43,802 nucleotides of DNA from Alphaproteobacteria bacterium (GTDB taxonomy: Bacteria; Pseudomonadota; Alphaproteobacteria; Bin95): contig JAJECZ010000212.1 of the NCBI GenBank assembly GCA_022821735.1, positions 1 to 43,802 on the forward strand. Reading direction: 5' to 3'. The number at the start of each line of letters is the position of its first letter. The stretch's first letter is position 1. The notes below the pieces were generated by a model, which was given only the letters and a program-made list of their open reading frames with translations, was not told the origin of the DNA and made no database searches. Position numbers and translations under genes: made by a program. Positions 22,913-42,437 of this stretch are shown here, one piece after another.

Positions 22913-23272
22913 ATGGGAAAACTCAATTTCGCCAACCAGCCCGTCTGGACCGGCGACAATCTCGCCATCATGCCGGGCATTCATTCGGATTTGGGCGATC
23001 TCAGCTACCTCGACGCTCCGCTCAACTCAAAAACTGACCATGCCGCGCCGATCGGCAGCAAGGCGGCCGGGGCCGCGAGCAGGGACACATGGTCGCCGGG
23101 CACCCTCGATGCCCTTCAGCGCCTGGAGGCCGATCATATCATCGCACGGGCGAAGGGCGGGACCGACCATGTCGGCAACCTCCAGCTCCTCGGCGGACAC
23201 CGCAACCGCGTGAAGGGAGACCGGGGCATGGTAGAGCTGCGCCCGAAACTCCGACTGCCAAGAGCGTCCTGA
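22913..23272 (+). pseudogene. Collapsed DNA-methyltransferase/HNH remnant inserted inside the exporter-1 operon
   Basis: The N-terminus resembles N6/N4 methylases (..VWTGDNLAIMPGI.SDLGDLSYLDAPLNS), but DPPF/Y has degraded to DAPL. The C-terminus resembles an HNH module (EADHIIARAKGGTDHVGNLQLLGGHRNRVKGDRG), but the CxxC cysteines are lost. Only 119 aa remain. Confidence 0.6.
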
Positions 23273-23286
23273 GCGCCAGGAAAGAG

Positions 23287-23967
23287 ATGCTGGAGCTTTC
23301 CGATGTCCGCAAGACGTTCCGGCGGGGGCCGGTCGAGGTAAAGGTCCTGAGGGGAGTCGACCTCCGCGTGGAGGCGGGCGACCTCATCTCGATCATGGGG
23401 CCGTCCGGCAGCGGCAAGTCCACGCTCATGAACATACTGGGCCTGCTGGGGCGCCAGACAAGCGGCATCTACCGGTTGAACGGCCGCGACGTCTCGACCA
23501 TGGACGACCGCGAACTCTCGGCGTTCCGCAACCGGCATATCGGTTTCGTGTTCCAGTCGTTCAATTTGCTGGGGCATCTGACGGCGCTGGAGAACGCGGC
23601 CCTGCCGCTTGTCTATCGCGGCCTCGGACGGCGGGACGTGCGCCGGCGCGCGCAAGGCATCCTGGAGAAGGTCGGCATGGGCGACCGGCTGGATCACAGG
23701 CCTGACCAGCTGTCGGGCGGCCAGAAGCAGCGGGTGGCGATTGCACGGGCGCTCGTGGGCGAGCCGGGAGTGGTACTGGCCGACGAACCGACCGGAGCGC
23801 TCGACTCCGACACGGCCGACGAGGTGATGCGGCTCCTGGTCCGGCTCAACCGGGATGAGGGTGTCGCGGTGGTCATCATCACGCACGCTCCTTCGGTATC
23901 CCGGCAATGCTGCCGGCAGACCCTGATCCGGGACGGCGCATTGCTGGAAGACGGCGACACGGCATGA
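23287..23967 (+). CDS. ABC transporter ATP-binding protein, MacB/LolD type (exporter 1)
   Basis: Walker A (GPSGSGKST), Q-loop, signature (LSGGQKQRVAIARAL) and Walker B (VLADEPTGALD). Confidence 0.95.
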   Translation: MLELSDVRKTFRRGPVEVKVLRGVDLRVEAGDLISIMGPSGSGKSTLMNILGLLGRQTSGIYRLNGRDVSTMDDRELSAFRNRHIGFVFQSFNLLGHLTALENAALPLVYRGLGRRDVRRRAQGILEKVGMGDRLDHRPDQLSGGQKQRVAIARALVGEPGVVLADEPTGALDSDTADEVMRLLVRLNRDEGVAVVIITHAPSVSRQCCRQTLIRDGALLEDGDTA

Positions 23968-25163
23968 GACACACCAGTCCCGCACTCATGGACAGCCTGC
24001 GCGAGGCCTTGCGGAGCCTCTTGCGGGCCCGGCTGCGCACCGTGCTCGGCCTCATCGGCATCGCCATCGGCATCGCTTCGGTGATCGCCATGGTCTCGAT
24101 AGGCGAGGTCGCCACCGCCGAGGCCCGCAAACAATTCGAGGCCCTCGGCACCGATATCGTCACAGTCAAGACGGCGAAGGACTACAGGGGCCCCGGGATT
24201 GCCTTGGAGGCCGCGCTGTCGCTGACGGACTCGCTGTCCGCCATCTCCGCGGCATCGCCGACCATTCTTGGCGGAACCAACTTCGTTCATGCCGGCCGGC
24301 GCGTGGGCACCGGCTCCGTCAAGGGGGTCAGAGCGTCCTATGCGGACCTCGTGAAGCTCGAAATCGCGGAGGGGCGGTTCGTGTCGGACCTCGACGCCGG
24401 AAGCCTGTGGTGCGTGGTCGGCGCGAACGTTGCCGCAGCCATTCGCCGGGCCGGAACGCTCGACCCACTAAGCGCCGAGCTTGAGGTTGACGGACGCTTC
24501 TACCGGGTCGCCGGCGTGCTGCGAAACCGTGAGGAAACCCATGGCCTTCCCTTCGAAGTGGACGCAGACAAATCCGTGTTCGTCCCGGCTGTCACGGCCT
24601 GGCGCGCCACGCCGAATCCGGAGGTCGGAACGATCATCGCCCGCGCCGCGCCCGGCATCCACCATGAAGATGCGGTGCGCGCGATCAAGACCTGGTTCAA
24701 TGAGCGGCAGCCGGAACTCAAGCTGGAGGTAAGAAGCGCCAAGCAGCTGATCGCACAGATGGAAAACCAGCTGGGCCTGATGGCCATGCTGTTGGGTGCG
24801 GTCGGCAGCATCAGCCTCGTCGTCGGCGGTATCGGTGTCATGAACATCATGCTGATTTCGGTCGCGGAACGTCGGCGCGAAATCGGTGTCCGCCGGGCGC
24901 TCGGCGCCAGCCGGATCGACATAAGGCGTCAATTCCTGGTCGAGTCGGTCATTCTGACGCTCGTCGGCGGCAGTTTCGGCTTTGTCATCGGCAGCGTCGC
25001 CACCTGGGGCATCTGCGAGTTCACAGACTGGGACTTCTTCGTTTCACCGCTCTCGGTGGTCGTCGGGCTCGTCATCTCGTCGGCCGTGGGTATCTTCTTC
25101 GGCATCCAGCCCGCCTACCAGGCCTCCCGTCTCGATCCCATCGTGGCATTGCAGGGAGAATGA
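23964..25163 (+). CDS. ABC transporter permease, MacB/FtsX type with a large periplasmic domain (exporter 1)
   Basis: The ATG at 23964 overlaps the ATPase stop (ATGA). It has TM1, a ~220-aa periplasmic domain, then an FtsX 3-TM bundle (..GGIGVMNIMLISVAERRREIGVRRALGA..; C-terminal ..PAYQASRLDPIVALQGE). Confidence 0.9.
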   Translation: MRHTSPALMDSLREALRSLLRARLRTVLGLIGIAIGIASVIAMVSIGEVATAEARKQFEALGTDIVTVKTAKDYRGPGIALEAALSLTDSLSAISAASPTILGGTNFVHAGRRVGTGSVKGVRASYADLVKLEIAEGRFVSDLDAGSLWCVVGANVAAAIRRAGTLDPLSAELEVDGRFYRVAGVLRNREETHGLPFEVDADKSVFVPAVTAWRATPNPEVGTIIARAAPGIHHEDAVRAIKTWFNERQPELKLEVRSAKQLIAQMENQLGLMAMLLGAVGSISLVVGGIGVMNIMLISVAERRREIGVRRALGASRIDIRRQFLVESVILTLVGGSFGFVIGSVATWGICEFTDWDFFVSPLSVVVGLVISSAVGIFFGIQPAYQASRLDPIVALQGE

Positions 25164-25826: not shown

Positions 25827-25854
25827 TTGCGCCCCCCAATTGGGGTAGGCGGGG
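25827..25854 (+). repeat. IS-end-like repeat copy
   Basis: ttgcgccccccaattggggtaggcgggg. It starts with TG, and the transposase fragment lies on its inner (right) side. Confidence 0.55.
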
Positions 25855-26077: not shown

Positions 26078-29000
26078 CTAGAAATGGGCTTTGGCGAGAG
26101 CAACAGCATCGAGTCCGATCTGCGCCCCGATGAGCCGTCCCGGGATGTCGTCCGCCGGCGGGTGGATGCCGCCCCATATGCGCGACAGGCTGCACTGGTC
26201 GGCGGCGTCGCGATAGGTCGCCCATTGCAGCACCATGTCCACTGATGGCCCACGCTCGAAGACCAGGAACCCGTTCGCCGGGATCCGGAACTCACTCATG
26301 CCGCCGGGAAAGAACGGGTCGCCGGTAAGCGCCGTCAGCACCTCCGCCGCAGCCCGAGAATAAGTGGAATGACCCGAGACATAGCCCGCGAAGGGCGGGG
26401 TGACGAACGTGGGCCGCTGGTAGGGCCACCAGTGTTCCGCGAGAATCCAGCCGACACCGGCCGCGTCGGTCGCCGGGTCGGCTACGTGGTCGGGCCCGCG
26501 CCAGGCCCGTATCTTGATCTTGCCCGCATGCGCACCGTCCTCGCCCGCGAGAGGGTCGTCCGGGCCGACCAGCTCGATCAGGCCGGCCGTTAACGGGATG
26601 CCGTCGGCGGACCATGAAGGAAGCGCGGGATCGCTGGACTGTCCCTGGTCCGCCATGAACCTGATTGCCGAGATCGGCCGGACATAGTCATACCAACCCT
26701 TGACCCCCCATGAAGCGATGGCGGCGTCGTGCATCGCTCCGCCCAGGGCGAAGTATGTCTTCACGTCCCATTCGAGCGGATCGAGAACGGGCCCCTCCCC
26801 CCCGAGCCGCCTGACCAGCTTCTCGTGGTCGCTGACCGCATTCAGGATCGCGTACCAGTGGCCGGGCGGGGTCTCGGAGTCGGGTCCGTCGGCCCAGAAC
26901 TCGGCGAGCGCGCGCGCATAGTCGCCGCGCGGCACGACCTGGGGCACGTAGGGCTCGCCCGTGGCGGGATTGACCCGGTGACCCGGACCGTGCGGGTTCC
27001 CGTCGTAGAAGGAAGGATAATCCTCGACCCTGCGCGGCAGAGCGGAGATGTTGCCGATGCCCGAAGGCGCGATGTCCATCAGCACGCCGTCCGCAGGCGA
27101 AAGCTCGGACGACCACCGGGCAACCAGCGAGAAGCCCCACCTGTAGTGTCCGGACAGGGAATCTCTCGAGAATGGCGGCGGGCCGGGATCGTGGTAGACG
27201 TACCAGTCGGCCCCGTCCCTGCGATAGACTGAAAGGTCTTTCCCTGACAGCGCGAAGGGCAGGACCCGGCCCCACTCGGGAGTAACGAAGACGGAAATGT
27301 TGTCCGCTGCGAATCCCGCCTGGTCCACGAAGCTCGCCAGATGGAGGGGTTGCCAGCGGTCGGGATCCGCGAGGTCCGGATTGCCCGGACGCGACGGCTT
27401 CAGCTTCCTGTTGACAGGCTCGTAGTGGAGGCTTGCGTAGTTGTTCGCCTCGTTGGAGCCGTCCTCAAACCCCCGGGCGATGTAGAGCGCGCCGATGCAG
27501 GCGCCCAACGCCGCCGCGGGCCCGCTGTTGCCGGCGTCGTATCCAAGCGCTGCCATGAGCGTATCGGCGTTGCGCAGGGTTGCGGACGCCCCCGGCGAAT
27601 GCCGGAAGCGGTGCCGGATGAGGCGCCACGCAGCATGGCTGATGGCTTCCCGTCGCGCGGCAGGGATGCCATCGGCAGACGGAACCGGCGTCGGCTCGCA
27701 GACGGGGTCGGGGTCGCCGAACAGGTAGGGCCTCGCCGTTCCGGAATACGAGGCCCAGGCGTCGTACATGGCGGCGGACAGATGAAACAGGTTTCGGGCA
27801 TGGACCGTCGGCCGCGAGAGATCGTCGCGGATCGCCTGCAACAGTACCTCGATCCAGCGCCGCGCGACCGAGATACCGGGGTCCGACAGTGCCGGCCCCG
27901 GCAGGAAGTTGGCAAAGATCGTCGCGTCGTTCGCCGGCATGACGAATGTCGTGCGGGGCGAGCGATCGTCGGCAAATGTCCCGCCGCCCTCGCTGCTCCA
28001 GTGGCTGAAGCGATAGTTGTCTGCAGGTGCGCCGGCCTCGACGGAGACCGTTTCCCCTTCGGCATGGAGACCGCCTTCAGCGCCGCCCGCAACGCTGAGC
28101 ACGGAGCCGCGGTGCGGCGGCTGACGGATGCTGAGACGACGGTCGGCCAGGATGTTCTCCAGCCGGCTGACCTCACCGCCCGGGCCGGGCCACATCACCT
28201 CCACCGCGGATACCGTTTGCTCCCGGCCGAGGCCGAAGTGCAACGTCGCAGGCCCCTGGGACAGGTAGCCGTCGCCAAACCGAACCTCTTGCGTCTGGCT
28301 GCCTGACGGAGTGTGGACGACCACGCGGGCGCCGATCGCCTCCGGGTTGGCATGCCGGCCGACGAGGTCGAGGGCGAGCCAGTGATTGCCGGTCTCGAAG
28401 GCGTTGCGATAGACGGTCGGAGCGGCGCCCAGATTGGCGATGAAGATGTCGACCCTGCCATCGCCATCGTAGTCCGTGCAGACGACGCCCCGGCCCTGGC
28501 CGGTGTGATCGATACCGAGTTCGCTTCCGCGTTCCGAGAAGGTGCCGTCTCCGTTCGACATGAACAGGCGCGACCTGTCCTCGAGAAATTCGAGCACGCT
28601 CTCCCTGTCTTCAGCTTCGCTGGGATCGTTGTCCACATTCCACCCGTTGGTATGAAAGAGATCGAGGTGGCCGTCATTGTCGAAATCCGCCCAGCAGGCG
28701 CCCCAGCCCCAGCCGCCCTCGCGAACGCCGGCGGCCTCGGTTGCATCCTCGAACCTGCCCGTCCCGTCGATGTTCCGATAGAGGCGGTTCCCGGTGGTTC
28801 CCTGGCCGCCGCTCTTGTCCGGGTCGAAGATGCTGGTCACGAACCAGTCGATATCGCCGTCCCGGTCGTAGTCGCCGGCCGAGGCGCCCATGCCGTTCTC
28901 GTCGGTCAGTACTGTCTTCCCCGTTTCGACGAAGGCGATACCGCGGTCGTTGCGCAGAATCTGGCTCGTCCCGAAGTCGCCGGCCAGCAGCAGATCGGGA

Positions 29001-29770
29001 TCGCCGTCTCCATCGATATCGGCGAATGTCGGCGTGAAGGCGTAGTGGAACGGCGTGCCCGACCTGCGGGTTTCCCGGGCATGCATGAGGATTTCGCTCA
29101 CGTCCCGATAGCGTCCCCTGCCGTCGTTTCGCCAGAGAAGGTGCGAGGGAGGGCGCACCCGGTTCGGAATTCTGCTCCAATGTGAAAAGAACAGGTCCAG
29201 GTCGCCGTCGCTGTCGTAGTCCGCCGCCGCCATGGAGTAGGCCGCCTGGTTGTGCCGGATACCGGAAATGCCGGGCGCCGTCGCGAACCGCCCTGTTCCG
29301 TCGTTGCGGAAGACCTGGACGCCGGTCTGCTGAAGCGACACGAAATCCTTCCGGCCGTCGCGGTCGAGATCGATGAAATACCCCGCCCAATCCATGTCCG
29401 CAGGTTCGATGCCGCGATTGCCGTCACGCTCCACGAAGCCGGTGCCGTCATAGCTGAACAGACGGCCCGTCTTGCCGACTCCATGGGCGACGTAGAGATC
29501 GAGCTTGCCGTCATTGTCGATGTCGGAGAGCGACAGGCCGGCAGCCTCGGGTTGTGCGCCGGCTTCCTCCAACAGTCTCCCCGAGCCGGGCACCACCGGG
29601 TAGTCGAGGCCGATCGCGGCCGAGACCTCCACGAAGCCGCGCCCTCGATATACCGCGTCTTCAGCCGACACCTCGTTCCAACCCGCAACGAACAGAAGGG
29701 CAAGGAAGAAGCGACACGACAGGCGTGCGCCACGGCGCGGACCCGCGTTTCCCTGTCGTGCCGCCTTCAT
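26078..29770 (-). CDS. Secreted multidomain protein: FG-GAP/VCBS repeats plus UnbV/ASPIC, an InlB-B-repeat-like domain, and a C-terminal vanadium-haloperoxidase/PAP2-like domain
   Basis: Signal peptide (..FFLALLFVAGWNEVSA). Many D.D.DGD.D FG-GAP repeats. ASPIC motif (GDGYLSQGPATLHFGLG....V..VEVMWPG). Repeat domain (..YRFSHWSSEGGGTF...TTFVMPANDATIFANF). PAP2/haloperoxidase motifs (YDYVRPISAIRF; YVSGHSTYS; SRIWGGIHPPADD). Confidence 0.85.
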   Translation of the reverse strand: MKAARQGNAGPRRGARLSCRFFLALLFVAGWNEVSAEDAVYRGRGFVEVSAAIGLDYPVVPGSGRLLEEAGAQPEAAGLSLSDIDNDGKLDLYVAHGVGKTGRLFSYDGTGFVERDGNRGIEPADMDWAGYFIDLDRDGRKDFVSLQQTGVQVFRNDGTGRFATAPGISGIRHNQAAYSMAAADYDSDGDLDLFFSHWSRIPNRVRPPSHLLWRNDGRGRYRDVSEILMHARETRRSGTPFHYAFTPTFADIDGDGDPDLLLAGDFGTSQILRNDRGIAFVETGKTVLTDENGMGASAGDYDRDGDIDWFVTSIFDPDKSGGQGTTGNRLYRNIDGTGRFEDATEAAGVREGGWGWGACWADFDNDGHLDLFHTNGWNVDNDPSEAEDRESVLEFLEDRSRLFMSNGDGTFSERGSELGIDHTGQGRGVVCTDYDGDGRVDIFIANLGAAPTVYRNAFETGNHWLALDLVGRHANPEAIGARVVVHTPSGSQTQEVRFGDGYLSQGPATLHFGLGREQTVSAVEVMWPGPGGEVSRLENILADRRLSIRQPPHRGSVLSVAGGAEGGLHAEGETVSVEAGAPADNYRFSHWSSEGGGTFADDRSPRTTFVMPANDATIFANFLPGPALSDPGISVARRWIEVLLQAIRDDLSRPTVHARNLFHLSAAMYDAWASYSGTARPYLFGDPDPVCEPTPVPSADGIPAARREAISHAAWRLIRHRFRHSPGASATLRNADTLMAALGYDAGNSGPAAALGACIGALYIARGFEDGSNEANNYASLHYEPVNRKLKPSRPGNPDLADPDRWQPLHLASFVDQAGFAADNISVFVTPEWGRVLPFALSGKDLSVYRRDGADWYVYHDPGPPPFSRDSLSGHYRWGFSLVARWSSELSPADGVLMDIAPSGIGNISALPRRVEDYPSFYDGNPHGPGHRVNPATGEPYVPQVVPRGDYARALAEFWADGPDSETPPGHWYAILNAVSDHEKLVRRLGGEGPVLDPLEWDVKTYFALGGAMHDAAIASWGVKGWYDYVRPISAIRFMADQGQSSDPALPSWSADGIPLTAGLIELVGPDDPLAGEDGAHAGKIKIRAWRGPDHVADPATDAAGVGWILAEHWWPYQRPTFVTPPFAGYVSGHSTYSRAAAEVLTALTGDPFFPGGMSEFRIPANGFLVFERGPSVDMVLQWATYRDAADQCSLSRIWGGIHPPADDIPGRLIGAQIGLDAVALAKAHF

Positions 29771-29835: not shown

Positions 29836-30069
29836 TCAGGCGGCCGATTTGACCGGCTCGCGGAACTGTTCCTCCTCGAAGCCTCTGGGGCTCGCATAGC
29901 CAAGAGCCGAGTGCAGGCGCCTCTTGCCATGGCTGTCGATGAAGCGCGGCAGGTGTTCCGGGACGTCTTTGGAGCCGTTACCGGTCTTGGGGACAGACCC
30001 CTCGATCTTCAGCGTCTTCATGAAGCTCTCCATCAGAGCGTTGTCGTTGAGCTGGCTGCGTCGTCCCAT
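29836..30069 (-). pseudogene. IS3-family transposase C-terminal fragment
   Basis: ..NDNALMESFMKTLKIE....LPRFIDSHGKRRLHSALGYASPRGFEEE matches the conserved IS3 OrfB C-terminus (YDNA..ESF.KTLK.E...LP.FIE..YN.KRLHSALGY.SP..FE). The upstream part is frame-broken. Confidence 0.75.
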
Positions 30070-30305: not shown

Positions 30306-30329
30306 ATCTCCCTCAATTGGGGGGCGGCA
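30306..30329 (-). repeat. IS-end-like repeat copy
   Basis: atctccctcaattggggggcggca. It lies about 260 nt upstream of Cys-rich gene A and marks the left edge of tandem-duplication unit A. Confidence 0.6.
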
Positions 30330-30588: not shown

Positions 30589-31173
30589 ATGAAGACACCC
30601 ATCGCATTTCGAACGGTAATCGCCGCTTTGTCGGTCATGTTTTTCACGGCTGCTGCATCGGAGGCCTTGGCAGCATGCGGATCGAGCCAGCGGATGAGCC
30701 ACCGAGATTCCCGCTGCCTCGAGGCGTCGTGGGACAACAATTACTGGCCGCACACGACCACGTATGAGGTAAGAAGCGTTTGTGACCGTTGGGGCAAGGT
30801 TGTCGCGAAAATAGACCTCAAGAGCGCAGCAGACCACACTCTGCATCTGAACAACAGTGATTGGCGACGTGCCGAAGGGTCGTTTCGGGTAAGATGGATT
30901 TACTGCTGCAAGGACATAAGCGACCTCTGCAACACATCGGAAATGAAGACAAATGAGAGTTGTCGCGACGGCTTCGAAGACCGCGATGAAGTCGACGACT
31001 GTACTCTTGACGACGGGACTTCCGGAGCGCGGATCAGGGGCGACCATTGCGTATATAACGCAAGTTGCCTTGACGATGCGTCGCAACCGAACCAGACGTC
31101 GCTCTCCATCCACCGAGCGGACCTGGAGTTCCTGAAAAACTGCAACGGCGTCCTGAAAAGGGATTCCTGCTGA
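30589..31173 (+). CDS. Cysteine-rich secreted or lipo-protein, paralog A (194 aa, 12 Cys)
   Basis: Signal peptide MKTPIAFRTVIAALSVMFFTAAASEALAAC; ends ...NCNGVLKRDSC. GC content is visibly lower than in its surroundings. No family recognised. Confidence 0.8.
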   Translation: MKTPIAFRTVIAALSVMFFTAAASEALAACGSSQRMSHRDSRCLEASWDNNYWPHTTTYEVRSVCDRWGKVVAKIDLKSAADHTLHLNNSDWRRAEGSFRVRWIYCCKDISDLCNTSEMKTNESCRDGFEDRDEVDDCTLDDGTSGARIRGDHCVYNASCLDDASQPNQTSLSIHRADLEFLKNCNGVLKRDSC

Positions 31174-31691
31174 TCCTGCCGGCCGAAGGAGGGGGCCTCG
31201 CTGAGCCGTGATGGAATGTTCGCCGATCTGGCGGCCCCGTTTCTCGCGGGCGCGGCGTCCGGCGCCGCCGGGTGCCGCCCCAGGGTACAGTATGCGGTCG
31301 AGATGCTCTCGTGCATGGCGCGGTGATGATCTGACATGTGCTCCGTGCGGATGCCGTAACGGTTGGACCCGGTCAGGCGGCTATGGACAGCGGTCCGTTC
31401 GCCATTGCGGGACAATGGGAGTTCGATCCCCCGTTCGCCGCGCCCGGAGCGTAGCGCCAACGTCTTGCCGGAGAAGTCCCACATGCCGCAGAGCGCCGGG
31501 GCATAGTCGAATCGGATCTGCAAAGCCCCGCGCCGGTCCCCGAGACGAGCCTTGAGGCAGGCGCAGAAACTGGATCTCTAGCCGTAAGCTCTTCTGCCCT
31601 GCGCGAGAACCCGGTCGCGATATACCACCCGGAGTTGGCGGGGCGTCGGCCGGGCGCGGCGCCGCTTCCGAACCCGAATGAACGAGAAAGA

Positions 31692-31715
31692 ATCTACCCC
31701 AACTGGGGGGCGGCA
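31692..31715 (-). repeat. IS-end-like repeat copy
   Basis: atctaccccaactggggggcggca. It lies about 260 nt upstream of Cys-rich gene B. Confidence 0.6.
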
Positions 31716-31972
31716 GTAATCGCCCGAACTCGTAGACTTTCGACGAAAACCAGGTTCCGTGCGAGGTTCATACAGGCCATGCCGCATTGCCACGCCGAAG
31801 GAATGCCGAGCCGGCATCCCGCGATATTGTCCGGGCCGCGGCCGTCAGGCCAGTCCGACATGCAAAATGCGCCGCCTTCGTTGTTGCCCTGGCACGCCAG
31901 GGCGCTCCCTCGCCGTGCAGTTCACCCATCCAACAAGGTCTCCGGACAGCAAGAAGGAAAGGGTATCGGACG

Positions 31973-32557
31973 ATGAACACGCGCATCGCATTTCGAACGG
32001 TAATCGCCGTTCTGTCGGTCATGTTCCTCACGGCTGCGGCATCGGACGCCTGGGCGGCGTGCGGATCGAGCCAGCGGATGAGCCACCGCGATTCCTTCTG
32101 TCTCCAGGCGTCGTGGGACAACAACAGCTGGCCGCACACGACGTCGTATGAGATGAGAAACATCTGCTCTTCCTGGGGCAAGGTCGTCGCGAAAGTCGAC
32201 AGAAAAGACGATTCGGACCTCACATTGCACCTGGTCAACGACTCCACGAGAACCGGCAGCGGGTGGTACAGGATCAGGTGGATTTACTGTTGCAAGGACA
32301 TAAGCGATCTCTGCAACAGGTCGGACATGCAGACAAACGCGAGCTGTCGCGAAGGCTTCGAGGACAACAACGAACTCGACGACTGCACGCTCGACGCGGG
32401 GTCCGAAGGAGCGAGGATTCAGGGCGAGCAGTGCGTATACAGCGCAAGCTGCCTCGACAATGCGTCGCAACCGAACGAGACGACGTTCATCGTCTTCCGA
32501 CCGGACGTGGACGATTTGAAGAATTGCAACGGCGTCTTGAAACAGGATTCCTGCTGA
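31973..32557 (+). CDS. Cysteine-rich secreted or lipo-protein, paralog B (194 aa, 12 Cys)
   Basis: MNTRIAFRTVIAVLSVMFLTAAASDAWAAC...NCNGVLKQDSC. It is colinear with paralog A and all 12 Cys positions are conserved. Confidence 0.8.
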   Translation: MNTRIAFRTVIAVLSVMFLTAAASDAWAACGSSQRMSHRDSFCLQASWDNNSWPHTTSYEMRNICSSWGKVVAKVDRKDDSDLTLHLVNDSTRTGSGWYRIRWIYCCKDISDLCNRSDMQTNASCREGFEDNNELDDCTLDAGSEGARIQGEQCVYSASCLDNASQPNETTFIVFRPDVDDLKNCNGVLKQDSC

Positions 32558-33121: not shown

Positions 33122-33829
33122 TCAGGAAAGGGCGGCAAGCGCTGCCTCCAGAGTCTCGCGGCAGTCCATGACCGACCGAAAGCCGCTCATGTCGACAACC
33201 GACCGGCATGAGGGCTGCAAGGCAGCGATAACGAACCTGCCGCCCGATTGCTGACATGTCTTCGCGCTGACGAGGAGGCCGCGCAGTCCGGCGCTGTTGA
33301 CATAGCTCATCCGGCTGCAATCCAGCGCCACACGGGCGTTGCCGGCCGCGACGACGGTGGAAACCCGGGCCTCCAGCAGCGGAGCGCCGCTGCCATCCAG
33401 CCGGCCGCTCACCGACAGGACGACCGCAACCTCCTCGCGGCGCTCCTCGATCGTGGTCTCCCCGCCGTCTTCCGGCATCGACTTAACGCCGCCCTCCCCG
33501 GAAGCGGCAAGGGCTGCCTCGACGGTCTCGTGGTAGTCGAGAACCGAGAGCAGACCACTCACGTTCACGACCTCCCGGCACTCCGGCCTGAGCGCAGCAA
33601 TGATGAAGGTGCCGCCCTCGTTCCCGCACGATTTAGCGCCGACCAGGAGCGCGCGCAGACCGGCACTGCTGATATAGGATATTCGCCGGCCGTCCAGAAT
33701 CACACGGTTGTCGCCCCGCCTCACGATAGCGGAAACCCGGGCTTCCAGAACCTGCGCGCCGGCCGCGTTCAGCGGCCCCTCCGGGGACACGACGACTTTC
33801 CGTTCCAGGCTCCGCTCCAGGATTCTCAT
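33122..33829 (-). CDS. Tandem-STAS domain protein (two anti-sigma-factor-antagonist-like domains)
   Basis: Two internal repeats each carry a SpoIIAA-like core: ..VILDGRRISYISSAGLRALLVGAK...FIIAAL.P.CREVVNVSGL.. and ..VALDCSRMSYVNSAGLRGLLVSAK...FVIAALQPSCRSVVDMSGF... The ATG at 33844 is an alternative start. Confidence 0.8.
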   Translation of the reverse strand: MRILERSLERKVVVSPEGPLNAAGAQVLEARVSAIVRRGDNRVILDGRRISYISSAGLRALLVGAKSCGNEGGTFIIAALRPECREVVNVSGLLSVLDYHETVEAALAASGEGGVKSMPEDGGETTIEERREEVAVVLSVSGRLDGSGAPLLEARVSTVVAAGNARVALDCSRMSYVNSAGLRGLLVSAKTCQQSGGRFVIAALQPSCRSVVDMSGFRSVMDCRETLEAALAALS

Positions 33830-33840
33830 GGCGCCGCCTT

Positions 33841-34605
33841 TCATCGGTCACGCCGATTGCCGTCCGCACGCGCCGCGGCGACGAGTTCCTTCATCTGGAT
33901 GTCGTCGATTGCGCCCGGGACCAGGGAATCCCCGATCACGAATGCCGGCGTGCCCGAAATCCCCAGCGCCCCGGCGAGCCGCCTCGTCTCCTCGAGATAG
34001 GCTGCGGTCGCAGGATCGCCCATGTCGCGGCGGAGCCGCTCCACGTCGAGCCCGACCGCGGCGGCGAGCCCGAAAATCCCCTCTTCGGTCAGCTTCTCCC
34101 CGGTACCCATCATGGCGACATGGAAATCGTGATAGAGCCCTTGCCGGTCAGCCGCCATTGCGGCAACTGCGGCCAAGTCCGAGACCGGACCCAGGATGGG
34201 AAACTCCTTCCAGACCACGCGGACCCGGTCGTCGGATTCCAGCAACGCCATCACGGCCGGAAACGCCCGCTTGCAGTAGCTGCATCTGTAGTCGAAGAAC
34301 TCGACCACGGTGACGTCGCCCTCGGGGTTGCCGGAGACCGGCGACAGGGGATGCGCCCGCAGGGCCCGGTCGTTTTCCGCGATCGCCGCCCGGGCGCGGC
34401 TCAGGCGCTCCTCCTCGCGCCTCTGGCGAAGAATCTGCATCGCCTCTTCCAGGACCTCGGGGTTCTCCAGCAGATACTCCCTGACGATCTCTCCGACCGC
34501 CTTCCTGTCGAGATTCGGGTCCGGCGCCGACTGCGCCCGGCTCTCCGGGGCCGGCATCATGATGGAAACGGCGATCACGGCCGCCAGCATCGTCATCATT
34601 CGCAT
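33841..34605 (-). CDS. DsbA-family periplasmic thiol:disulfide oxidoreductase
   Basis: Signal peptide, thioredoxin-fold active site (VVEFFDYRCSYCKR) and the DsbA-like cis-Pro region (ISGTPAFVIG). Confidence 0.9.
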   Translation of the reverse strand: MRMMTMLAAVIAVSIMMPAPESRAQSAPDPNLDRKAVGEIVREYLLENPEVLEEAMQILRQRREEERLSRARAAIAENDRALRAHPLSPVSGNPEGDVTVVEFFDYRCSYCKRAFPAVMALLESDDRVRVVWKEFPILGPVSDLAAVAAMAADRQGLYHDFHVAMMGTGEKLTEEGIFGLAAAVGLDVERLRRDMGDPATAAYLEETRRLAGALGISGTPAFVIGDSLVPGAIDDIQMKELVAAARADGNRRDR

Positions 34606-34785
34606 GGGTCATGTTCCTTGTCTGTGTATGCGTGCGGAGGACTCATCGATCACCCGTAAACCACGGCGCGGACGATCGTCTGTCGAGTTGATTTGCGGGC
34701 CGGATTGGCGCAATTTTCGCTGGACGAAATCCCCGGCCAATGGCGTGGCGACCATATACGGACGGAAAGATCGGAGGGCGCCGGC

Positions 34786-35202
34786 GTGACCTCTTGCAAG
34801 CTCTCGGGAGAAGACGCCGTCGCCTTTGACGCTCCCCTTCTGCTCTATGACGGCGAATGCCCGTTCTGCAGCTTCTACGTCGCGAAATCGGAATTCGAAA
34901 CGCGCATCGGCAAGCCCCTGCGTCTCGTCGACGGCAGGCAGGCCCCCGACCTCGTCGAGCGCATGCGGCGCGACGGGTACGACCTCGAACAGGGCATGAT
35001 CCTCGCCGTCGAGGGACGGCTCTATCACGGCGCAGCGGCGATGACCGCACTCGCGACCATGAGCACCGGCGCCGGCCGCTTCAACAGGGTCATGCGCCGG
35101 GTCGCGTCGAGCCGTGCGCGGGTCCGCCGGCTCTATCCCTGGCTGCGCAGGCTGCGGCGCGCAGCTCTGCTCGCAAAGGGCGCGCCCCGCTTCCGGCGCT
35201 GA
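34786..35202 (+). CDS. DCC-family (DUF393) thiol-disulfide oxidoreductase
   Basis: DxxCxxC motif near the N-terminus (LLLYDGECPFCSFYV). The GTG at 34786, preceded by GGAGG, gives the usual ~138-aa size. The ORF-track start at 34693 is less likely. Confidence 0.8.
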   Translation: MTSCKLSGEDAVAFDAPLLLYDGECPFCSFYVAKSEFETRIGKPLRLVDGRQAPDLVERMRRDGYDLEQGMILAVEGRLYHGAAAMTALATMSTGAGRFNRVMRRVASSRARVRRLYPWLRRLRRAALLAKGAPRFRR

Positions 35203-35216: not shown

Positions 35217-36782
35217 TCATTCCCGATCCTCGCAGGCGACGCCGCTCCGGGAGCCGCCCGAAACAGCCTCGAACCCGGGCGACCGTTCCCGTTTTCCAAA
35301 TGCGTCCAGCATGGCGCCGAAGCAGGCGGACGTCATCGGCGGATACCAGGTAGGGACCAGCCCTTGCGCCGCCTGTACCCGCTCGGGACGGAGCAGCCAG
35401 GGCTCCTCGCCGAACCAGTTCATGCCGTCGATCGCGGCGAGGTCGAAGGTCGGATCCACCAGGCGCTGAAACGGCTTGCCGTTCACGCTCTTCGAGATGT
35501 CGGCGTAAATGCGCACATCATCGATGCCCTGCCGGGCGAAATCCGCCTTCAGCCAATGCACATAGTGCATCAGCACCTCGGGCTTGGTGAACACCATGAA
35601 CTCCTGAAGCGGATCGAGATGGGATCGCGGTTCGACGATCCATGCCTCGCCGTTCGGTGCGGCCACCAGGAAGCTCCCGCCGCCGTCGTTGATGTAGAGC
35701 ATCATGCGCCAGGAGAATTTCTGGCCCTCTTCGGTCCACCCGACATAGCCTTCGAACAGGCTGTCCCGGAAGGGCAGCCAGATTTGGACTAGGGCGTAGA
35801 GGACGAGGGCAGCCAACGCAGCCGGATGCAACGGACGGAAGGCGGCCCGATCGTCTGCGCTTCCCGCCGGCGCGCCGCCGATGAACGCGACCGCGCGGCC
35901 GATCCGGTCCGGCATTCGTGGTCGCACCACCCGCAGCCTCTTCAGCACGAGGCCGGTCCTGCGCGCCAGCGCCCCGGGCCAGTCGGGGGAGAACAGGATC
36001 GTCGTGGCGGCGATCGTCATCCACGGGAAGACGCCGATAGGGAACAGATGCGCGTTGGCGACGTGGAAGGCGCAGTAGACCAGGAATATCCAGAGCCTCG
36101 TCTTCGACCACAGCAGCAACGGCGCCCCCACCACGTGGAGCAGGATGACCAGCACGGGCGCCGCGAGCGTCACCCAGTGCAGCTCGAACAGGACGGAGAA
36201 GGGCGACCAGGTCCGCTCCAGCATCCAGGTCCTGAGCGGCTCGCCCCGCAGCCAGTCGATCTCGAATTTCGCCAGTCCCGCGAAAATCAGCACAACCTCG
36301 ACCTGGAACTGCAGGATGAGGAGGTTCCAGCGCGGTACCTCTCGCGTGCCCCCGATGCGGCCGAGCCTGCGGTCCACCGACCAGCAGCGGTGCGCGTCGG
36401 TACAGCCGAGCAGCAGCCCGAACAGCGCGATCATGTAGAAATGGTTGAGATAGAGCAGCTGATCGAGAAGGAAGAAGTATATGAAAATCGCGTTGAAGCC
36501 CCAGATGGCGAGACGATAGAAGGCGCCGAAGGCGACGAGCACGCAGCACACCCCGCACAGCGCCCACAGCCAGTGCAGCCAGGGTGCCGGCAAAGGCGGC
36601 ACCTCCAGTCCGAAATAGGGAAACAGGATTTCGCGCTCGACATAGAACCGCGTCAGCCATCCGCCTCTCAGCAGATAGACAACGTCGTGCAGCATCACGA
36701 GGCCGAAGGCGATCCGGAAGACGGCAAGCGACTGTCCGGCCACGGGCCGGACGGCCAGCCTGCGAATGTCTGTCAGCATCAT
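35217..36782 (-). CDS. HTTM-domain membrane protein (vitamin-K-dependent gamma-glutamyl carboxylase-like)
   Basis: N-terminal HTTM signature (..GQSLAVFRIAFGLVMLHDVVYLLRGGWLTRFYVE..ILFPYFGLE...YRLAIWGFNAIFIYFFLLDQLLYLNHFYM..L..LL). It has multiple TM segments and a ~200-aa C-terminal domain. It starts 54 nt downstream of the exporter-2 permease on the same strand. Confidence 0.85.
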   Translation of the reverse strand: MMLTDIRRLAVRPVAGQSLAVFRIAFGLVMLHDVVYLLRGGWLTRFYVEREILFPYFGLEVPPLPAPWLHWLWALCGVCCVLVAFGAFYRLAIWGFNAIFIYFFLLDQLLYLNHFYMIALFGLLLGCTDAHRCWSVDRRLGRIGGTREVPRWNLLILQFQVEVVLIFAGLAKFEIDWLRGEPLRTWMLERTWSPFSVLFELHWVTLAAPVLVILLHVVGAPLLLWSKTRLWIFLVYCAFHVANAHLFPIGVFPWMTIAATTILFSPDWPGALARRTGLVLKRLRVVRPRMPDRIGRAVAFIGGAPAGSADDRAAFRPLHPAALAALVLYALVQIWLPFRDSLFEGYVGWTEEGQKFSWRMMLYINDGGGSFLVAAPNGEAWIVEPRSHLDPLQEFMVFTKPEVLMHYVHWLKADFARQGIDDVRIYADISKSVNGKPFQRLVDPTFDLAAIDGMNWFGEEPWLLRPERVQAAQGLVPTWYPPMTSACFGAMLDAFGKRERSPGFEAVSGGSRSGVACEDRE

Positions 36783-36836: not shown

Positions 36837-38051
36837 CTATTCGCCCTGCAGCGCGATGATGGGATCCAGGCGCGAAGCCTGGTAGGCGGGCTGGAAGCCG
36901 AAGAAGAGGCCGATCGCGGACGAGACGCCGACGCCGGCAGCGATGGATGTCGGCGAGACGAAGAAATCCCACTCGAAGAAGAACCGGCACAGGCCGTAAG
37001 TCGCTCCTGTTCCGATGAGAATGCCGACCACCCCGCCGCCCATGGTGAGGATCAGGGCCTCGACCAGGAACTGGCTCTGGATGTCGCCGGGGCTCGCGCC
37101 GAGGGCCAGCCGAACGCCGATCTCGCGGCGCCGCTCGGCCACCGAAATCAGCATGACGTTCATCACGCCGAGCCCGCCCACGATCAGGCTGATGCTGCCG
37201 ACCGCGCCGAGCAGCAGGGTCATCACGCCCAGCTGTGCCTCCATGCGCTCGATCAGCTGCTCGGCGCTGGTGACCTGGACGGCGAGGCCCCGGGACCGTT
37301 CGGCGAAGAAGGTCTGGATGTCCGCGGCGGCGTCCGCGTAGTGAACGCCGGGCGCAACCCGGGCGACGATCAGTTCGATCTGCGCGTCCGGACTGAGGCG
37401 CCGGACCGTGGTAACGGGAACGAATACGGATTTGTTCGCGTCCACGGAAAACGGCAGCGCATAGCTCTCGGGCGTGTCGGCCAGTACGCCGATCACGGTG
37501 TAGAGCCAGTCTCCGGCCCCCACGATCTCGCCCACGACCTCGCTTGCGCCGAGCCGGCGCATTTTCTGCGCCACCTCGGCGCCCACCACCGCGAAATAGC
37601 GCCCCCTGTCCAGGTCCGAGACGAAGCGCCCCTCGGCGACCTGCAGCCGGTTTACGCGCGCAAACGACTCCGAAACGCCCTGTACGGAGCCGGAACCGGC
37701 GTCCTTGCCGGCATACAGGAAGGAACCGCTTGACCGTATCCTGGGCGCCGCCTCGGCAATGGTCGAAAGCCTGTCGGCAACGTCGAGCGCATCCTCCAGA
37801 CCGATGGCCGCGTCTTGCGCGGCGGCCGGCTGGTCCTCCGACTTGAGGACCGAAAGTATATCGGTCCCGACAGCCTCGAACTTCTTGCGCGCCTCGGCGG
37901 TGGCGATTTCCCCGGTCGAGATCATCGCGATCACCGACGCGATGCCCATCGCGATGCCGACCAGCCCCAGGATCGTGCGGAGCCTTGCACGCAGGAGGCT
38001 GCGCGCGGCCTCGCGCAGGCTGTCGGTCAATGCGGCTCCCCCGCGCGCCAT
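36837..38051 (-). CDS. ABC transporter permease, MacB/FtsX type (exporter 2)
   Basis: Colinear with the 23964 permease (MARGGAALTDSLREAARSLLRARLRTILG...PAYQASRLDPIIALQGE). The ATG at 38051 is preferred over the longer ORF. Confidence 0.9.
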   Translation of the reverse strand: MARGGAALTDSLREAARSLLRARLRTILGLVGIAMGIASVIAMISTGEIATAEARKKFEAVGTDILSVLKSEDQPAAAQDAAIGLEDALDVADRLSTIAEAAPRIRSSGSFLYAGKDAGSGSVQGVSESFARVNRLQVAEGRFVSDLDRGRYFAVVGAEVAQKMRRLGASEVVGEIVGAGDWLYTVIGVLADTPESYALPFSVDANKSVFVPVTTVRRLSPDAQIELIVARVAPGVHYADAAADIQTFFAERSRGLAVQVTSAEQLIERMEAQLGVMTLLLGAVGSISLIVGGLGVMNVMLISVAERRREIGVRLALGASPGDIQSQFLVEALILTMGGGVVGILIGTGATYGLCRFFFEWDFFVSPTSIAAGVGVSSAIGLFFGFQPAYQASRLDPIIALQGE

Positions 38052-38062
38052 AACGCCGCCGT

Positions 38063-38743
<681 letters not shown>

Positions 38744-38758: not shown

Positions 38759-40531
38759 TCAGTATTCCGGCACCGCGATTTCGTCGCCGGCCTCCAGGCC
38801 TGCAACGATCTCGACGGAACTCATCGTGGTCAGACCGATTTCGACTTCGCGCTCGACCGTTTCGCCGGTGCCCGGATCGACAATCTGCACCCAGTGCGAC
38901 CGCCCGCGACGGTCCACCGCCGCCAGCGGCACCGTGAGCGCCTCCTCGTTGCGGTAGACGACGATCTCCAGCCTGCTGGACATCCCGGCGCGCAGCCGCC
39001 GCTGTTGTGCGTCGTCGAGCGGATCGAGCGTCACCCTGACGGCGAAACGGGACGCTCTCCCCGTCTGTTGCACCGGCTGCGACGAGACCTGGGTCACGGT
39101 CCCCTTCAGCATCAGGTCGCGAAAGGCGTTCCCGGTTACCGATACGGCCTGCCCGACGGCGATCCGGACCACGTCGACTTCGTCCACCTTCGCGGTTGCC
39201 GCCATCCGGGTGAAGTCTCCGATGGTGAGCAGATGGTCGCCCTTACGTACGGCCCGGCCTGCCGCCAGGGCCGGGCCGCGCGACGAGGACGCCATGACCA
39301 CCCCCGACAGCGGTGCATGGATACGCCCCTTGTCGAGGTCTTCCGCCAGCTCCCGCAATGTTTCCTCGGCAGTGCTGAGTTCCAGCGCCGCCTTGTCCTG
39401 CGCCTCCTTGCCGCCCCTGGCCCGGGCCGCCTCGAAGTCTTCGCGGGCTGCCTCGAAATCCAGAAGCTGGCTCTGGTACCGCCGTTCCGCATCCTCGCGC
39501 TCGGAGGTGGCGACCAGGCCCTGTTCCAGCAGGAACGCGGTCCGCTTCAGCTGCCTCTCCTGATCCTCCAGTTCCATGCGCGCACGCGCGAACGACCGCC
39601 TGGCAGCCGCCATCTCGGAGCCGGTCTCCCAGTTTGTGACGGTTTCGAACGCATCCGCCTTTTCGATGTGGGCCACTTGCGCCTCGCGGTGCTTTTGCAC
39701 CGCTTCGGAGGTATCCAGTTCCATCAGGAGACCGCCCTCCTGCACCGCCTGGCCGTGCTCGAAATGCACGGCTTCGATGCGGCTCTCGATCGGACTCGTC
39801 ACCGCAACCGTCCGCCATGGCGCCAGCTTGCCCGACAGCGTGATCGTCTCGCTTACCGGCTGCGGCCCCACGGTCACCGTGTAATGGCCTTCTTCGAGCC
39901 CGGCCCTGGCAGGGGAGACAACGGACTGATCGAGCGAGCCCTCAAAGAGATCGAGCGGCTGCCACACATAGGCGCCGGCGCCCAGGAACGTCCCGATCAC
40001 AACCACCGTCGCGACGATCCGCGCCACCTGGACCTGTCTCAGGGTCGCCGCCAGGGTCCGGTTGCGGTCCTCGATCTGCCGGTACGCCGACTGAAGCTCG
40101 GCGTGCTGCGCCTCCACTGCCTTCGCCATCCGCAGTTCGGTCTCGCGCAGCTCCTTGAGCTCGGTGATGTCGCTGAAGACGGCGATCAGCGCCATCGGCG
40201 CCGACTCGCCGTCCGCGCCCGACCGAAGATAGGATGTCGCTACCGAGAGCGACCGGGCTTCCCCGCCTCTCTCCAGCGCCACCACCCGCCGGCCGCCGTC
40301 GCTCTCCCCGGTCACGGCGTCGAGGATCAGCCCGCTCAGCTCTTCGAAGCCGTCGCGGTCGATGAAGAGTTGGGCGAAGGACCCGCCCACGGCCTCGTCC
40401 GGCGCGAGCCCGAGGATGCGTCCCGCCGCCTCGTTGAACACCGAAACGGTGCCGCCGCGCTCGACCACGATCACGCCGTCGGACAGGTTCTCCAGAACGC
40501 TCCCGCGTATATCGGCGAACCCGCCCGTCAT
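38759..40531 (-). CDS. Membrane-fusion protein with an N-terminal cytoplasmic PAS domain (exporter 2)
   Basis: The ATG at 40531 overlaps the OMF stop (ATGA). MTGGFADIRGSVLENLSDGVIVVERGGTVSVFNEAAGRILGL...IAVFSDITELKELRETELRM, then a TM segment (IVATVVVIGTFLGAGAYVW) and the adaptor domains. The 945-aa ORF extension overlaps the OMF gene and is rejected. Confidence 0.85.
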   Translation of the reverse strand: MTGGFADIRGSVLENLSDGVIVVERGGTVSVFNEAAGRILGLAPDEAVGGSFAQLFIDRDGFEELSGLILDAVTGESDGGRRVVALERGGEARSLSVATSYLRSGADGESAPMALIAVFSDITELKELRETELRMAKAVEAQHAELQSAYRQIEDRNRTLAATLRQVQVARIVATVVVIGTFLGAGAYVWQPLDLFEGSLDQSVVSPARAGLEEGHYTVTVGPQPVSETITLSGKLAPWRTVAVTSPIESRIEAVHFEHGQAVQEGGLLMELDTSEAVQKHREAQVAHIEKADAFETVTNWETGSEMAAARRSFARARMELEDQERQLKRTAFLLEQGLVATSEREDAERRYQSQLLDFEAAREDFEAARARGGKEAQDKAALELSTAEETLRELAEDLDKGRIHAPLSGVVMASSSRGPALAAGRAVRKGDHLLTIGDFTRMAATAKVDEVDVVRIAVGQAVSVTGNAFRDLMLKGTVTQVSSQPVQQTGRASRFAVRVTLDPLDDAQQRRLRAGMSSRLEIVVYRNEEALTVPLAAVDRRGRSHWVQIVDPGTGETVEREVEIGLTTMSSVEIVAGLEAGDEIAVPEY

Positions 40532-42413: not shown

Positions 42414-42437
42414 TGTCGCCCCCCAATTGAGGGAGAT
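42414..42437 (+). repeat. IS-end-like repeat copy
   Basis: tgtcgccccccaattgagggagat. It shares about 70 nt including flanks (..gttcag..aaagt..ccttgtc.cccccaattgagggagattcccaag.aatg) with the copy at 43637. Confidence 0.6.

Follow-up and report, generated by a model that had tools for sequence, protein, structure and literature searches.

MacB-type pumps take their substrates from the periplasm: in Escherichia coli, MacAB-TolC expels the Sec-exported, DsbA-oxidized enterotoxin STII, and Aat and Cex export dispersin and CexE, respectively, through pumps of the same type (PMC5985334). Dispersin (~10 kDa) has been described as a possible upper size bound of MacB cargo, and cargo of the dispersin/CexE type has its place of action on the surface of the cell or where it meets the host (PMC5985334). 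Here, we describe a 43,802-nucleotide stretch of DNA from an Alphaproteobacteria bacterium (assembly GCA_022821735.1, contig JAJECZ010000212.1, positions 1 to 43,802 of the forward strand; hereafter, the window), in which four paralogous genes (A to D) for cysteine-rich secreted proteins belong to a conserved island of ~25 kb that also holds two dedicated MacB-type exporters, genes for redox chemistry and maturation, and a candidate operator common to the genes. This context was overlooked in the preliminary description of the four genes and is the main clue to how the paralogs work; embedded in a conserved and apparently co-regulated export and maturation island, they are of more interest than a stand-alone orphan family would be. 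We put at about even the chance that the genes are functional and that their products are two-module acidic secreted proteins of ~19 kDa (30 kDa for D), which pass from the Sec pathway through disulfide formation to a MacB pump and belong to one regulon.

With the route of STII, the locus shares a Sec signal, predicted DsbA-type periplasmic disulfides, and a MacB pump with an adaptor and a TolC-like duct as the presumed way across the outer membrane. The pump genes of the window adjoin the cargo genes, whereas E. coli uses a general pump, encoded on the chromosome and not linked to its cargo, and the window differs further in the PAS domain on the adaptor, the separate ATPase and permease genes, and the attached redox and maturation genes. 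STII is a peptide of 48 aa with two disulfides, whereas the mature paralogs comprise 166–272 aa with a predicted 6–10 disulfides and have no sequence or fold similarity to it. The Aat/dispersin system of enteroaggregative E. coli (EAEC) and the CexPABC/CexE system of enterotoxigenic E. coli (ETEC) resemble the locus in that a dedicated MacB-type pump is encoded beside a small Sec-dependent protein (PMC5985334). Dispersin is basic, smaller, and Cys-poor, in contrast to the acidic 12-Cys proteins described here, and is not homologous to them. The island genes that were scanned with Pfam include no Lnt-like acyltransferase, which would be the counterpart of AatD.

SdpB is an HTTM protein that is needed for the maturation of SdpC. 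Like the locus, the SdpABC/YknWXYZ system of Bacillus subtilis combines a Sec-dependent disulfide protein, an HTTM protein, and a MacB-type pump with an adaptor; the role of YknWXYZ as the pump follows PMC4887032. It differs from the locus, where the HTTM protein is a full GGCX-like one with a lumenal domain, the paralogs have no similarity to SdpC, and the pump is a Gram-negative three-component type with an outer-membrane duct. Vitamin-K-dependent gamma-carboxyglutamate (Gla) proteins and gamma-carboxylated conotoxins offer a further parallel, namely Cys-rich secreted proteins beside a GGCX homolog with conserved Lys and His, but neither Gla-domain nor propeptide similarity exists here and the acidic loop varies over the family. 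Our proposed mechanism introduces no new principle but varies a known kind, MacB-type two-step secretion.

Four paralogs of an undescribed protein family

The open reading frames (ORFs) that the preliminary description had placed at 30589, 31973, 43367(-), and 18824 are all present, with the Cys counts of 12, 12, 10, and 20 that it gave:

30589..31173, forward strand: paralog A, a precursor of 194 aa with 12 Cys
31973..32557, forward strand: paralog B, 194 aa with 12 Cys, a tandem duplicate of A
43367..42798, reverse strand: paralog C, 189 aa with 10 Cys, upstream of exporter operon 2
18824..19741, forward strand: paralog D, 305 aa with 20 Cys, the first gene of exporter operon 1

Paralogs A, B, and C are mutually 46–70% identical in amino acid sequence (identity to A: B 70%, C 46%), and D is 24% identical to A. 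The scaffold of motifs that had been ascribed to all four genes is literal in A, B, and C (a leader ending in AAC, C-x12-CLE, WDNNxWP, GKVVAKID, RWIxCC, DISDLCN, an acidic stretch, and C-x5-C-x24-C-x8-C) and degenerate in D, which retains mainly the Cys framework. Despite its low identity, D is a true family member: against a profile of 65 family members from which it had been left out, it scored 93.5 bits with three domain matches, an N-module (residues 16–114) and two C-modules (residues 144–225 and 232–305), so that the C-terminal module does occur twice in this protein, as had been proposed. A six-frame hidden Markov model (HMM) scan of the window recovered exactly A, B, C, and D, and no decayed extra paralogs, including in the low-GC gaps at 42.0–42.8 kb and 25.2–26.1 kb.

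The tandem duplication that gave A and B spans 1384 bp and takes in ~280 nt of upstream sequence. Both copies are under purifying selection, as indicated by the ratio of nonsynonymous to synonymous substitution rates (dN/dS = 0.30, with dS 0.65). Each of the four genes has the good ribosome-binding site that had been noted, a Shine-Dalgarno-like purine run 7–9 nt before the ATG (GGAGGAG at 7 nt for C; GGTGAGGAG at 8 nt for D; GGAAAGGG at 9 nt for A and B). The mature proteins A to C have masses of 18.7–18.9 kDa and isoelectric points (pI) of 4.7–5.6 (mature A: 18.9 kDa, pI 5.5), and mature D has 29.8 kDa and a pI of 4.5. The paralogs of the window also carry an E/D-rich loop (EGFEDxDExDDC) between two Cys. 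Paralog C lacks exactly two of the twelve conserved Cys, the equivalents of Cys107 and Cys125 of A; because both were lost jointly, they may form one disulfide that joins the N- and C-modules. As a general means of finding disulfide partners, co-loss of Cys was too noisy, and this pair in C was the only suggestive case.

An exhaustive profile search covering 1.84 billion representatives returned 450 clusters at E ≤ 1e-3, 286 at E ≤ 1e-10, and 80 at E ≤ 1e-30, and none of the clusters that were looked up had been named by any source. A word-indexed search of 5.8 billion proteins found just 10 relatives, all metagenomic and unnamed. Among 156 family sequences, all 12 Cys columns are ≥90% conserved; of 62 complete members, 49 have exactly 12 Cys, and the count is even in nearly all. 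The earlier statement that the proteins always end in Cys holds for the four genes of the window and not for the wider family: the last Cys is invariant, but of the 65 members that extend to the last column, only 34 stop exactly at this residue, the others continuing with tails of 1–26 aa or with long Calx-beta extensions. In the long relatives (436–855 aa), a Calx-beta domain follows the module, and some family proteins carry the N-module two or three times. The median pI of the family is 5.4, and its genes occur in tandem arrays of 2 to ≥6 copies.

An AlphaFold2 (AF2) model of mature A, built from the 65-sequence alignment, reached a predicted local distance difference test score (pLDDT) of 91.6. 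In this model, the N-module is all-beta with seven strands, and the C-module consists of two helices, a sheet, and a hairpin; each module has ~9–10 kDa and six conserved Cys. The profile searches, structure prediction, and Foldseek comparisons that had been suggested as checks recovered no described family, in line with the earlier impression that no Pfam-like family is involved. For the four paralogs, no relevant family was found in Pfam or NCBIfam at E ≤ 1, nor did the 65 family members match any family consistently at that threshold. The best hmmsearch match among PDB sequences was unrelated (E 0.075). Foldseek was run with two AF2 models against PDB and with one against BFVD: for the model with pLDDT 91.6, the best PDB match had an E of 0.24 with template modeling (TM) scores ≤ 0.26, and the best BFVD match had a non-significant E of 0.047. 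No family match was found by tblastn among the PLSDB plasmids, and literature searches for the family or the island returned nothing. With 450 clusters, 12 Cys columns conserved at ≥90%, a dN/dS of 0.30, and a pLDDT of 91.6, the family is real but undescribed; on the evidence of the model, the fold as well as the protein family appears to be new.

One structural resemblance may serve as a lead. The second- and third-ranked BFVD matches are megavirus CVNH-domain proteins (61 columns, root-mean-square deviation 3.3 Å, 28% identity; Foldseek probability 1.00, E 0.058, which is not significant at database level). Alignment of the C-module with CV-N by hhalign gave P values of 0.016 and 0.0086 over 52 columns, the latter for the second CV-N repeat, with a probability of 4.7%. 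The stretch concerned comprises residues 100–162 of mature A (about 30970–31160 of the window) and residues 144–225 and 232–305 of D. It is the consensus F..S.A..C…A.C…T.I.V…L.NC.G.L of the C-module that matches this second repeat, and the two C-modules of D parallel the two repeats of CV-N, but the Cys pattern of the C-module differs. Pfam CVNH (PF08881) matched none of the family members, and no CV-N structure stood among the top 50 PDB Foldseek matches. The likeness of the C-module to a CVNH lectin repeat is suggestive and not significant, a lead short of membership.

Export signal of the family

The leaders were assessed by a heuristic pattern test for signal peptides (positively charged n-region, hydrophobic h-region, small residues at -3 and -1). 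A hydrophobic 10-mer with a Kyte-Doolittle (KD) value > 1.6 is present in 147 of 148 leaders, and 121 of 148 show the pattern (A/V/S/G/T/C)-x-(A/G/S) with a single residue between it and the first Cys. In the precursor of paralog A, the signal peptide corresponds to residues 1–28 (…EALA↓ACGSS). These patterns point to leaders of the signal peptidase I type and to a mature N-terminus of (A/S)-C-G-S-S-x-R. Given such leaders, the 12 conserved Cys, and a DsbA/ScsC-like protein encoded in the island, the paralogs are almost certainly extracytoplasmic and fully disulfide-bonded, as the preliminary description had supposed from the even Cys counts.

That the proteins are ordinary lipoproteins, in which the Cys after the leader is the lipidated +1 residue, is suggested by the leader of A, whose end (L-A-A-C) is by itself compatible with a lipobox. 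Across the family, a strict lipobox ([LVI][ASTVI][GAS]C at the leader end) occurs in 7 of 148 leaders and a broad one in 13, compared with 121 that have the AXA signal peptidase I site one residue earlier, and at position -3 relative to the first Cys, the residues H, E, A, Q, and D predominate. On this survey of 148 leaders we reject the lipoprotein reading, which we regard as extremely improbable.

Two MacB-type exporters and their neighbors

Two four-gene pumps, 45–77% identical to each other, are encoded in the island. The stop codon of D lies 13 nt ahead of the first gene of exporter 1, and C precedes exporter 2 (41943–36837):

19754..21157, forward strand: exporter 1, TolC-like outer-membrane factor (Pfam OEP, 6.5e-36; NCBIfam TolC family)
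21124..22899, forward strand: exporter 1, membrane-fusion adaptor (PAS domain at 18–136, transmembrane helix at ~175–193, periplasmic HlyD/MacA-like part)
23089..23967, forward strand: exporter 1, ATP-binding cassette (ABC) ATPase (Pfam ABC_tran, 1e-32)
23907..25163, forward strand: exporter 1, MacB-type permease (MacB_PCD and FtsX)
40528..41943, reverse strand: exporter 2, TolC-like OEP (Pfam scan)
38759..40531, reverse strand: exporter 2, PAS-fused adaptor (start set by alignment to the exporter 1 adaptor)
38063..38743, reverse strand: exporter 2, ABC ATPase (Pfam scan)
36837..38123, reverse strand: exporter 2, MacB-type permease (Pfam scan)

In both adaptors, the PAS domain is N-terminal and cytoplasmic, standing before the transmembrane helix, and it is kept in the corresponding loci L001, L003, and others. 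Operon 2 ends with a gene for a double-STAS protein. The PAS-fused adaptors and the double-STAS protein suggest that pump activity is regulated by signals; as an analogy, the STAS protein MlaB regulates the ABC transporter MlaFE. The genes that surround the pumps are as follows:

33122..33844, reverse strand: double-STAS (anti-sigma-antagonist-like) protein, last gene of operon 2
33841..34605, reverse strand: periplasmic thiol:disulfide oxidoreductase with ScsC_N and DsbA-like parts and a signal peptide
34660..35202, forward strand: DCC1-like thiol-disulfide oxidoreductase (Pfam, 8.8e-11; supported by its pattern of GC content at third codon positions, GC3), on the strand opposite to the HTTM gene
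35217..36782, reverse strand: protein with HTTM and VKGC_lumenal_dom domains (Pfam), a homolog of vitamin-K-dependent gamma-carboxylase
26078..29770, reverse strand: secreted FG-GAP giant of 1230 aa, with an FG-GAP propeller, ASPIC/UnbV, and a vanadium-haloperoxidase/PAP2-like C-terminus
29836..30069, reverse strand: remnant (77 aa) of an IS3-type integrase (rve_3), between the FG-GAP gene and A
16410..17660, reverse strand: LuxR/GerE-type regulator, just upstream of D

The HTTM protein matches human GGCX with an E of 1.6e-39 over ~440 residues, and the residues aligned with the catalytic K218 and H160 are conserved, as read from the alignment. It belongs to a tight clade (63–90% identity) composed solely of proteins from metagenome-assembled genomes (MAGs), and its Rhodobacterales homologs are ≤45% identical. 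The opposite-strand arrangement of the DCC1-like and HTTM genes recurs in two other loci (L002 and L056). In the latter, from Paracoccus isoporae, the pair occurs without pumps or family members, showing that HTTM and DCC1 form a portable two-gene module. A 203-aa ORF on the reverse strand (34609–35220) is a shadow frame of the DCC1-like gene (GC3 of 0.67 against 0.76 at first codon positions, GC1), and tblastn matches to it elsewhere arise from the real DCC1-like gene on the other strand. Membership of the HTTM protein in the SdpB family was considered and rejected, as neither it nor its neighbor had an NCBIfam match at E ≤ 1e-3.

The FG-GAP giant has a signal peptide, the C-terminal motifs SGHS and SRIWGGIHPPADD, an InlB-B-repeat-like domain, and DUF6851. 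Its orthologs (~1500–1670 bits) adjoin family genes in at least 10 other loci. In the window, its gene stands between operons 1 and 2, as do A, B, and the integrase remnant.

A palindromic motif shared across the island

An 18–30 nt motif, ATCTMCCYCAAYTGGGGG, with the palindromic core CCCYCAAYTGGGGG, occurs at seven sites in the window (none expected), and precedes all four paralogs, pump operon 2, and the LuxR-type gene:

30306..30323, forward strand: palindromic motif ATCTCCCTCAATTGGGGG, 283 nt upstream of A
31692..31709, forward strand: palindromic motif, 281 nt upstream of B
43641..43658, reverse strand: palindromic motif, 274 nt upstream of C
18447..18464, forward strand: palindromic motif, 377 nt upstream of D and exporter operon 1
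42420..42437, reverse strand: palindromic motif, 477 nt upstream of the exporter 2 OEP gene
17781..17798, reverse strand: variant with two mismatches, 121 nt upstream of the LuxR-type gene
25833..25850, reverse strand: variant whose CCCCAATTGGGG core is perfect, in the interval that separates exporter 1 from the FG-GAP gene

L012, an alphaproteobacterial MAG that is independent of the window, has the exact core ~170 nt upstream of an OEP-like gene and a one-base variant ~255 nt upstream of a family gene (positions 16085 and about 9745). From its placement, the palindrome is probably the operator of one regulon, and a LuxR-type dimer plausibly binds it. Two other readings of the palindrome were rejected: by eye, it lacks the TGGCAC-N5-TTGC of a sigma-54 promoter, and with only ~30 nt in common outside the A/B duplication, it is not part of a miniature inverted-repeat transposable element (MITE).

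No recognized gene lies downstream of the motif copy at 25833(-). About 110 nt past it, a hairpin is followed by a T-run (ggcagcattgatgctgcc ttttt; window 25622–25850, reverse strand), which could mark a short transcript or a bidirectional terminator of operon 1.

Recurrence and distribution of the island

The pump subfamily is found within 10 kb of family members in about 16 of 49 independent loci, and a same-strand set of OEP, PAS-adaptor, ABC, and MacB genes stands ≤10 kb from a family gene in L001, L003, L008, L012, L015, L021, L024, L042, and others. In L001–L003, which are long metagenome contigs with relatives at 30–38% identity, the pump set directly adjoins the family gene; L001 and L002 also hold the FG-GAP giant, and L002 adds the HTTM, DCC1, ScsC/DsbA, and double-STAS genes. 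The gene order in L008 is three Cys-rich genes, OEP, adaptor, ABC, MacB, HTTM, and DCC. When the neighboring genes of the paralogs in the window were compared by tblastn with 44 loci of GTDB species representatives, parts of the island were found at ≤10 kb in about 13. The ScsC/DsbA, DCC1, HTTM, STAS, and FG-GAP proteins co-occur in L002, L008, L009, L011, L012, and L015, and homologs of the LuxR-type gene adjoin the cluster in L009, L011, and L015. The HTTM gene is missing within 10 kb in several pump-linked loci (L001, L003, L024). The remaining family copies are scattered, often in tandem arrays and often beside transposases, including IS66, IS1595, or integrase genes (L052, L053).

In a genome scan with an alignment of 8 closer family sequences, the family proved to be distributed patchily across Alphaproteobacteria, Gammaproteobacteria, Ca. 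Binatia, Cyanobacteria, and Chloroflexi MAGs. The sample of the window contig in the European Nucleotide Archive (ENA) is 'KELL22-1_SAMN22237337' (run SRR16351678), a code that fits the Ircinia sponge microbiomes of Kelly et al. 2022, in which MAG labels of the 'jk18x' type are used (PMC9531527); MAGs with such labels also carry family members. Seven family loci are present in 'Aphanocapsa feldmannii 277cV' (Ca. Synechococcus feldmannii), which lives as a symbiont inside cells of Petrosia ficiformis (PMC6506613). Other carriers include 'Rhodospirillaceae bacterium Spongia_Bin9', 'Chloroflexi bacterium SB0662_bin_61', and MAGs of Ca. Binatia, Gammaproteobacteria, Thalassobaculaceae, Defluviicoccus, and Rhodobacterales. 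For the island genes, the nearest relatives come from MAGs annotated as Rhodospirillaceae or Alphaproteobacteria. Among the traceable sources, every identifiable one is a symbiont of a marine sponge, and these span at least five bacterial lineages.

The preliminary description had argued for horizontal acquisition from a GC content of 50–55%. This range is about right for A (55.4%) and C (55.3%), too low for B (57.8%), and wrong for D (60.9%), against 66.4% for the window. Codon positions 1 and 2 account for most of the deficit (GC1 of the four paralogs is 0.46–0.52, compared with ~0.70), which mirrors proteins with much Asn, Ser, Asp, Lys, and Cys; at third positions, B (GC3 0.79) and D (0.82) are normal, and only A (0.66) and C (0.68) are low. 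GC content is thus weak evidence for recent acquisition. Horizontal spread is supported instead by the patchy occurrence over lineages and by the adjoining transposase genes or remnants.

Recognition and retention of symbionts by sponges is usually framed by 'eukaryotic-like' proteins with ankyrin, LRR, FN3, or cadherin domains. The present family is a different candidate for sponge symbiosis, with no Pfam, NCBIfam, or structural match, many copies, and an occurrence common to unrelated lineages; the recognizable export and maturation island and the candidate operator make it directly testable. For a bacterial clade of gamma-glutamyl-carboxylase homologs, the island also supplies a setting in the genome and proteins that are candidates for their substrates.

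Proposed route and rival explanations

In the route that we propose, the paralogs would be exported by Sec and, as their sequences predict, lose their leaders to signal peptidase I, with the cut a single residue ahead of the first Cys. Six disulfides would then form in the periplasm, possibly with the help of the ScsC/DsbA-like protein of the island, the DCC1-like oxidoreductase, and the quinone-dependent HTTM/GGCX homolog. The MacB-type tripartite pump encoded next to the paralogs would then expel the folded protein from the periplasm to the outside, a step that we infer from the conserved pump linkage and the precedent of STII and dispersin. The genes would form one regulon through the shared palindromic operator (CCCYCAAYTGGGGG), probably under the neighboring LuxR-type regulator. 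In the most speculative step, the proteins might act as binding or adhesion factors in the matrix of the sponge host and not as membrane-active toxins; such an extracellular role is suggested by their acidity, the Calx-beta fusions, the tandem arrays, the purifying selection, and the host-associated distribution. If the route is correct, MacB-type two-step secretion extends to folded multi-disulfide proteins of 19–30 kDa, and the PAS-fused adaptors and the double-STAS partner are possible new regulators of such secretion.

Several points weigh against this route. The main objection is that the mature paralogs (18.7–29.8 kDa) exceed the largest documented MacB cargo, although their modules have just ~9–10 kDa each. 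A different substrate, for example a lipid or a small molecule, could be what the pumps export. About two-thirds of the family copies elsewhere have no pump within 10 kb, including all seven loci of the cyanobacterial symbiont. The link to sponges rests on the identifiable subset of MAG and sample names, and many MAGs bear just an anonymous isolate code.

The size of the paralogs, their tight co-operonic placement with the pumps, and the several thiol-redox genes of the island would also suit proteins that are retained in the envelope, in the periplasm or associated with the outer membrane, as accessory or substrate-presenting partners of the pumps or as redox or metal-binding proteins, with the pumps exporting another substrate. 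We consider this unlikely: there are four paralogs for two pumps, compared with the one copy per pump that is expected of an accessory subunit, arrays reach six or more copies elsewhere with many copies far from any pump, and the long relatives are large Calx-beta proteins of a kind that is typical of the cell surface or exterior. Alternatively, the paralogs may be interbacterial toxins, large and bacteriocin-like, with MacB-type pumps serving toxin export, self-protection, or both, as in SdpC/SdpB/YknWXYZ. YknWXYZ is the MacB-type pump for the SDP toxin (PMC4887032), the locus likewise joins an HTTM protein and MacB-type pumps to a Sec-dependent disulfide protein, and multi-copy, mobile, and patchy genes in a dense microbial community would fit such a role. 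Against it, the proteins are acidic and not cationic, no small conserved immunity-like ORF lies beside A, B, or C, and no SdpB-type NCBIfam model matches the HTTM protein (E ≤ 1e-3). Moreover, the HTTM and DCC1 module occurs in Paracoccus without pumps or family, Calx-beta fusions suggest structural or adhesive use, and selection on A and B is purifying, not diversifying. Toxins are therefore not a likely explanation, and within the earlier suggestion of 'toxin, bacteriocin, adhesin or effector', the acidity, the Calx-beta fusions, and the lack of a visible immunity partner lean toward adhesin or effector and away from bacteriocin.

It has also to be asked whether the paralogs are modified before export, with the GGCX homolog carboxylating the EGFEDxDExDDC stretch and the haloperoxidase-like giant perhaps halogenating, as a counterpart of Gla proteins or conotoxins. 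This would be compatible with the proposed route, adding a step to two-step secretion, and it draws on the match of the HTTM protein to human GGCX (E 1.6e-39) with conserved residues at the K218 and H160 positions, on the recurrence of its tight clade (63–90% identity) beside family genes, and on the E/D-rich loop between two Cys in the window paralogs. The acidic loop is confined to the window subfamily, however, and no Glu column is conserved in alignments of 14 or 65 sequences (loop-divergent examples are P0005, ECLDQFRKSPAKQGC, and P0008, GCLAQYLKSPAV); a Gla-type acidic motif as a feature of the family was rejected on these alignments. The HTTM gene is absent within 10 kb at pump-linked loci (L001, L003, L024), the HTTM and DCC1 pair is found elsewhere without the family, and known bacterial GGCX relatives perform other chemistry, such as MloH, which alpha-carboxylates Asp of a polyketide-peptide (bioRxiv 10.64898/2026.08.19.745780). 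Judged from the sequences, gamma-carboxylation by the GGCX homolog is possible and not supported family-wide, and we hold modification before export to be quite improbable.

A wider form of this idea, rather improbable in our view, is a self-contained, horizontally spreading make-modify-export island specific to sponge symbionts, in which the GGCX homolog, DCC1, the thiol oxidoreductases, and the haloperoxidase-like propeller would mature the 12-Cys proteins, PAS/STAS-regulated pumps would release them into the extracellular matrix of the animal, and the proteins, with a C-module that may be a CVNH-like lectin repeat, would bind host glycans or matrix in symbiont recognition. If true, bacteria would possess a parallel to the maturation of Gla proteins or conotoxins, combined with folded-protein secretion at about twice the known size of MacB cargo.

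Other features of the window

Apart from the palindrome, the 196 nt upstream of A (30393–30588) and B (31777–31972) are 84% identical, compared with 56% at synonymous sites, indicating that this region is constrained. It can be aligned only among A, B, and P0002, an ortholog of B, and not with P0003 or P0004. Its predicted RNA fold was not significant (minimum free energy z-score -0.97), a sigma-70 promoter scan of the region found none, and no RNA family was found when the window was scanned with Rfam.

The left end of the window carries a KpsF/KdsD-like SIS+CBS gene (2632–3603) and rpoN (5825–7258), both on the forward strand, so that outside the island the DNA looks like an ordinary proteobacterial chromosome. 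The window as a whole is presumably chromosomal DNA of an alphaproteobacterial sponge symbiont.

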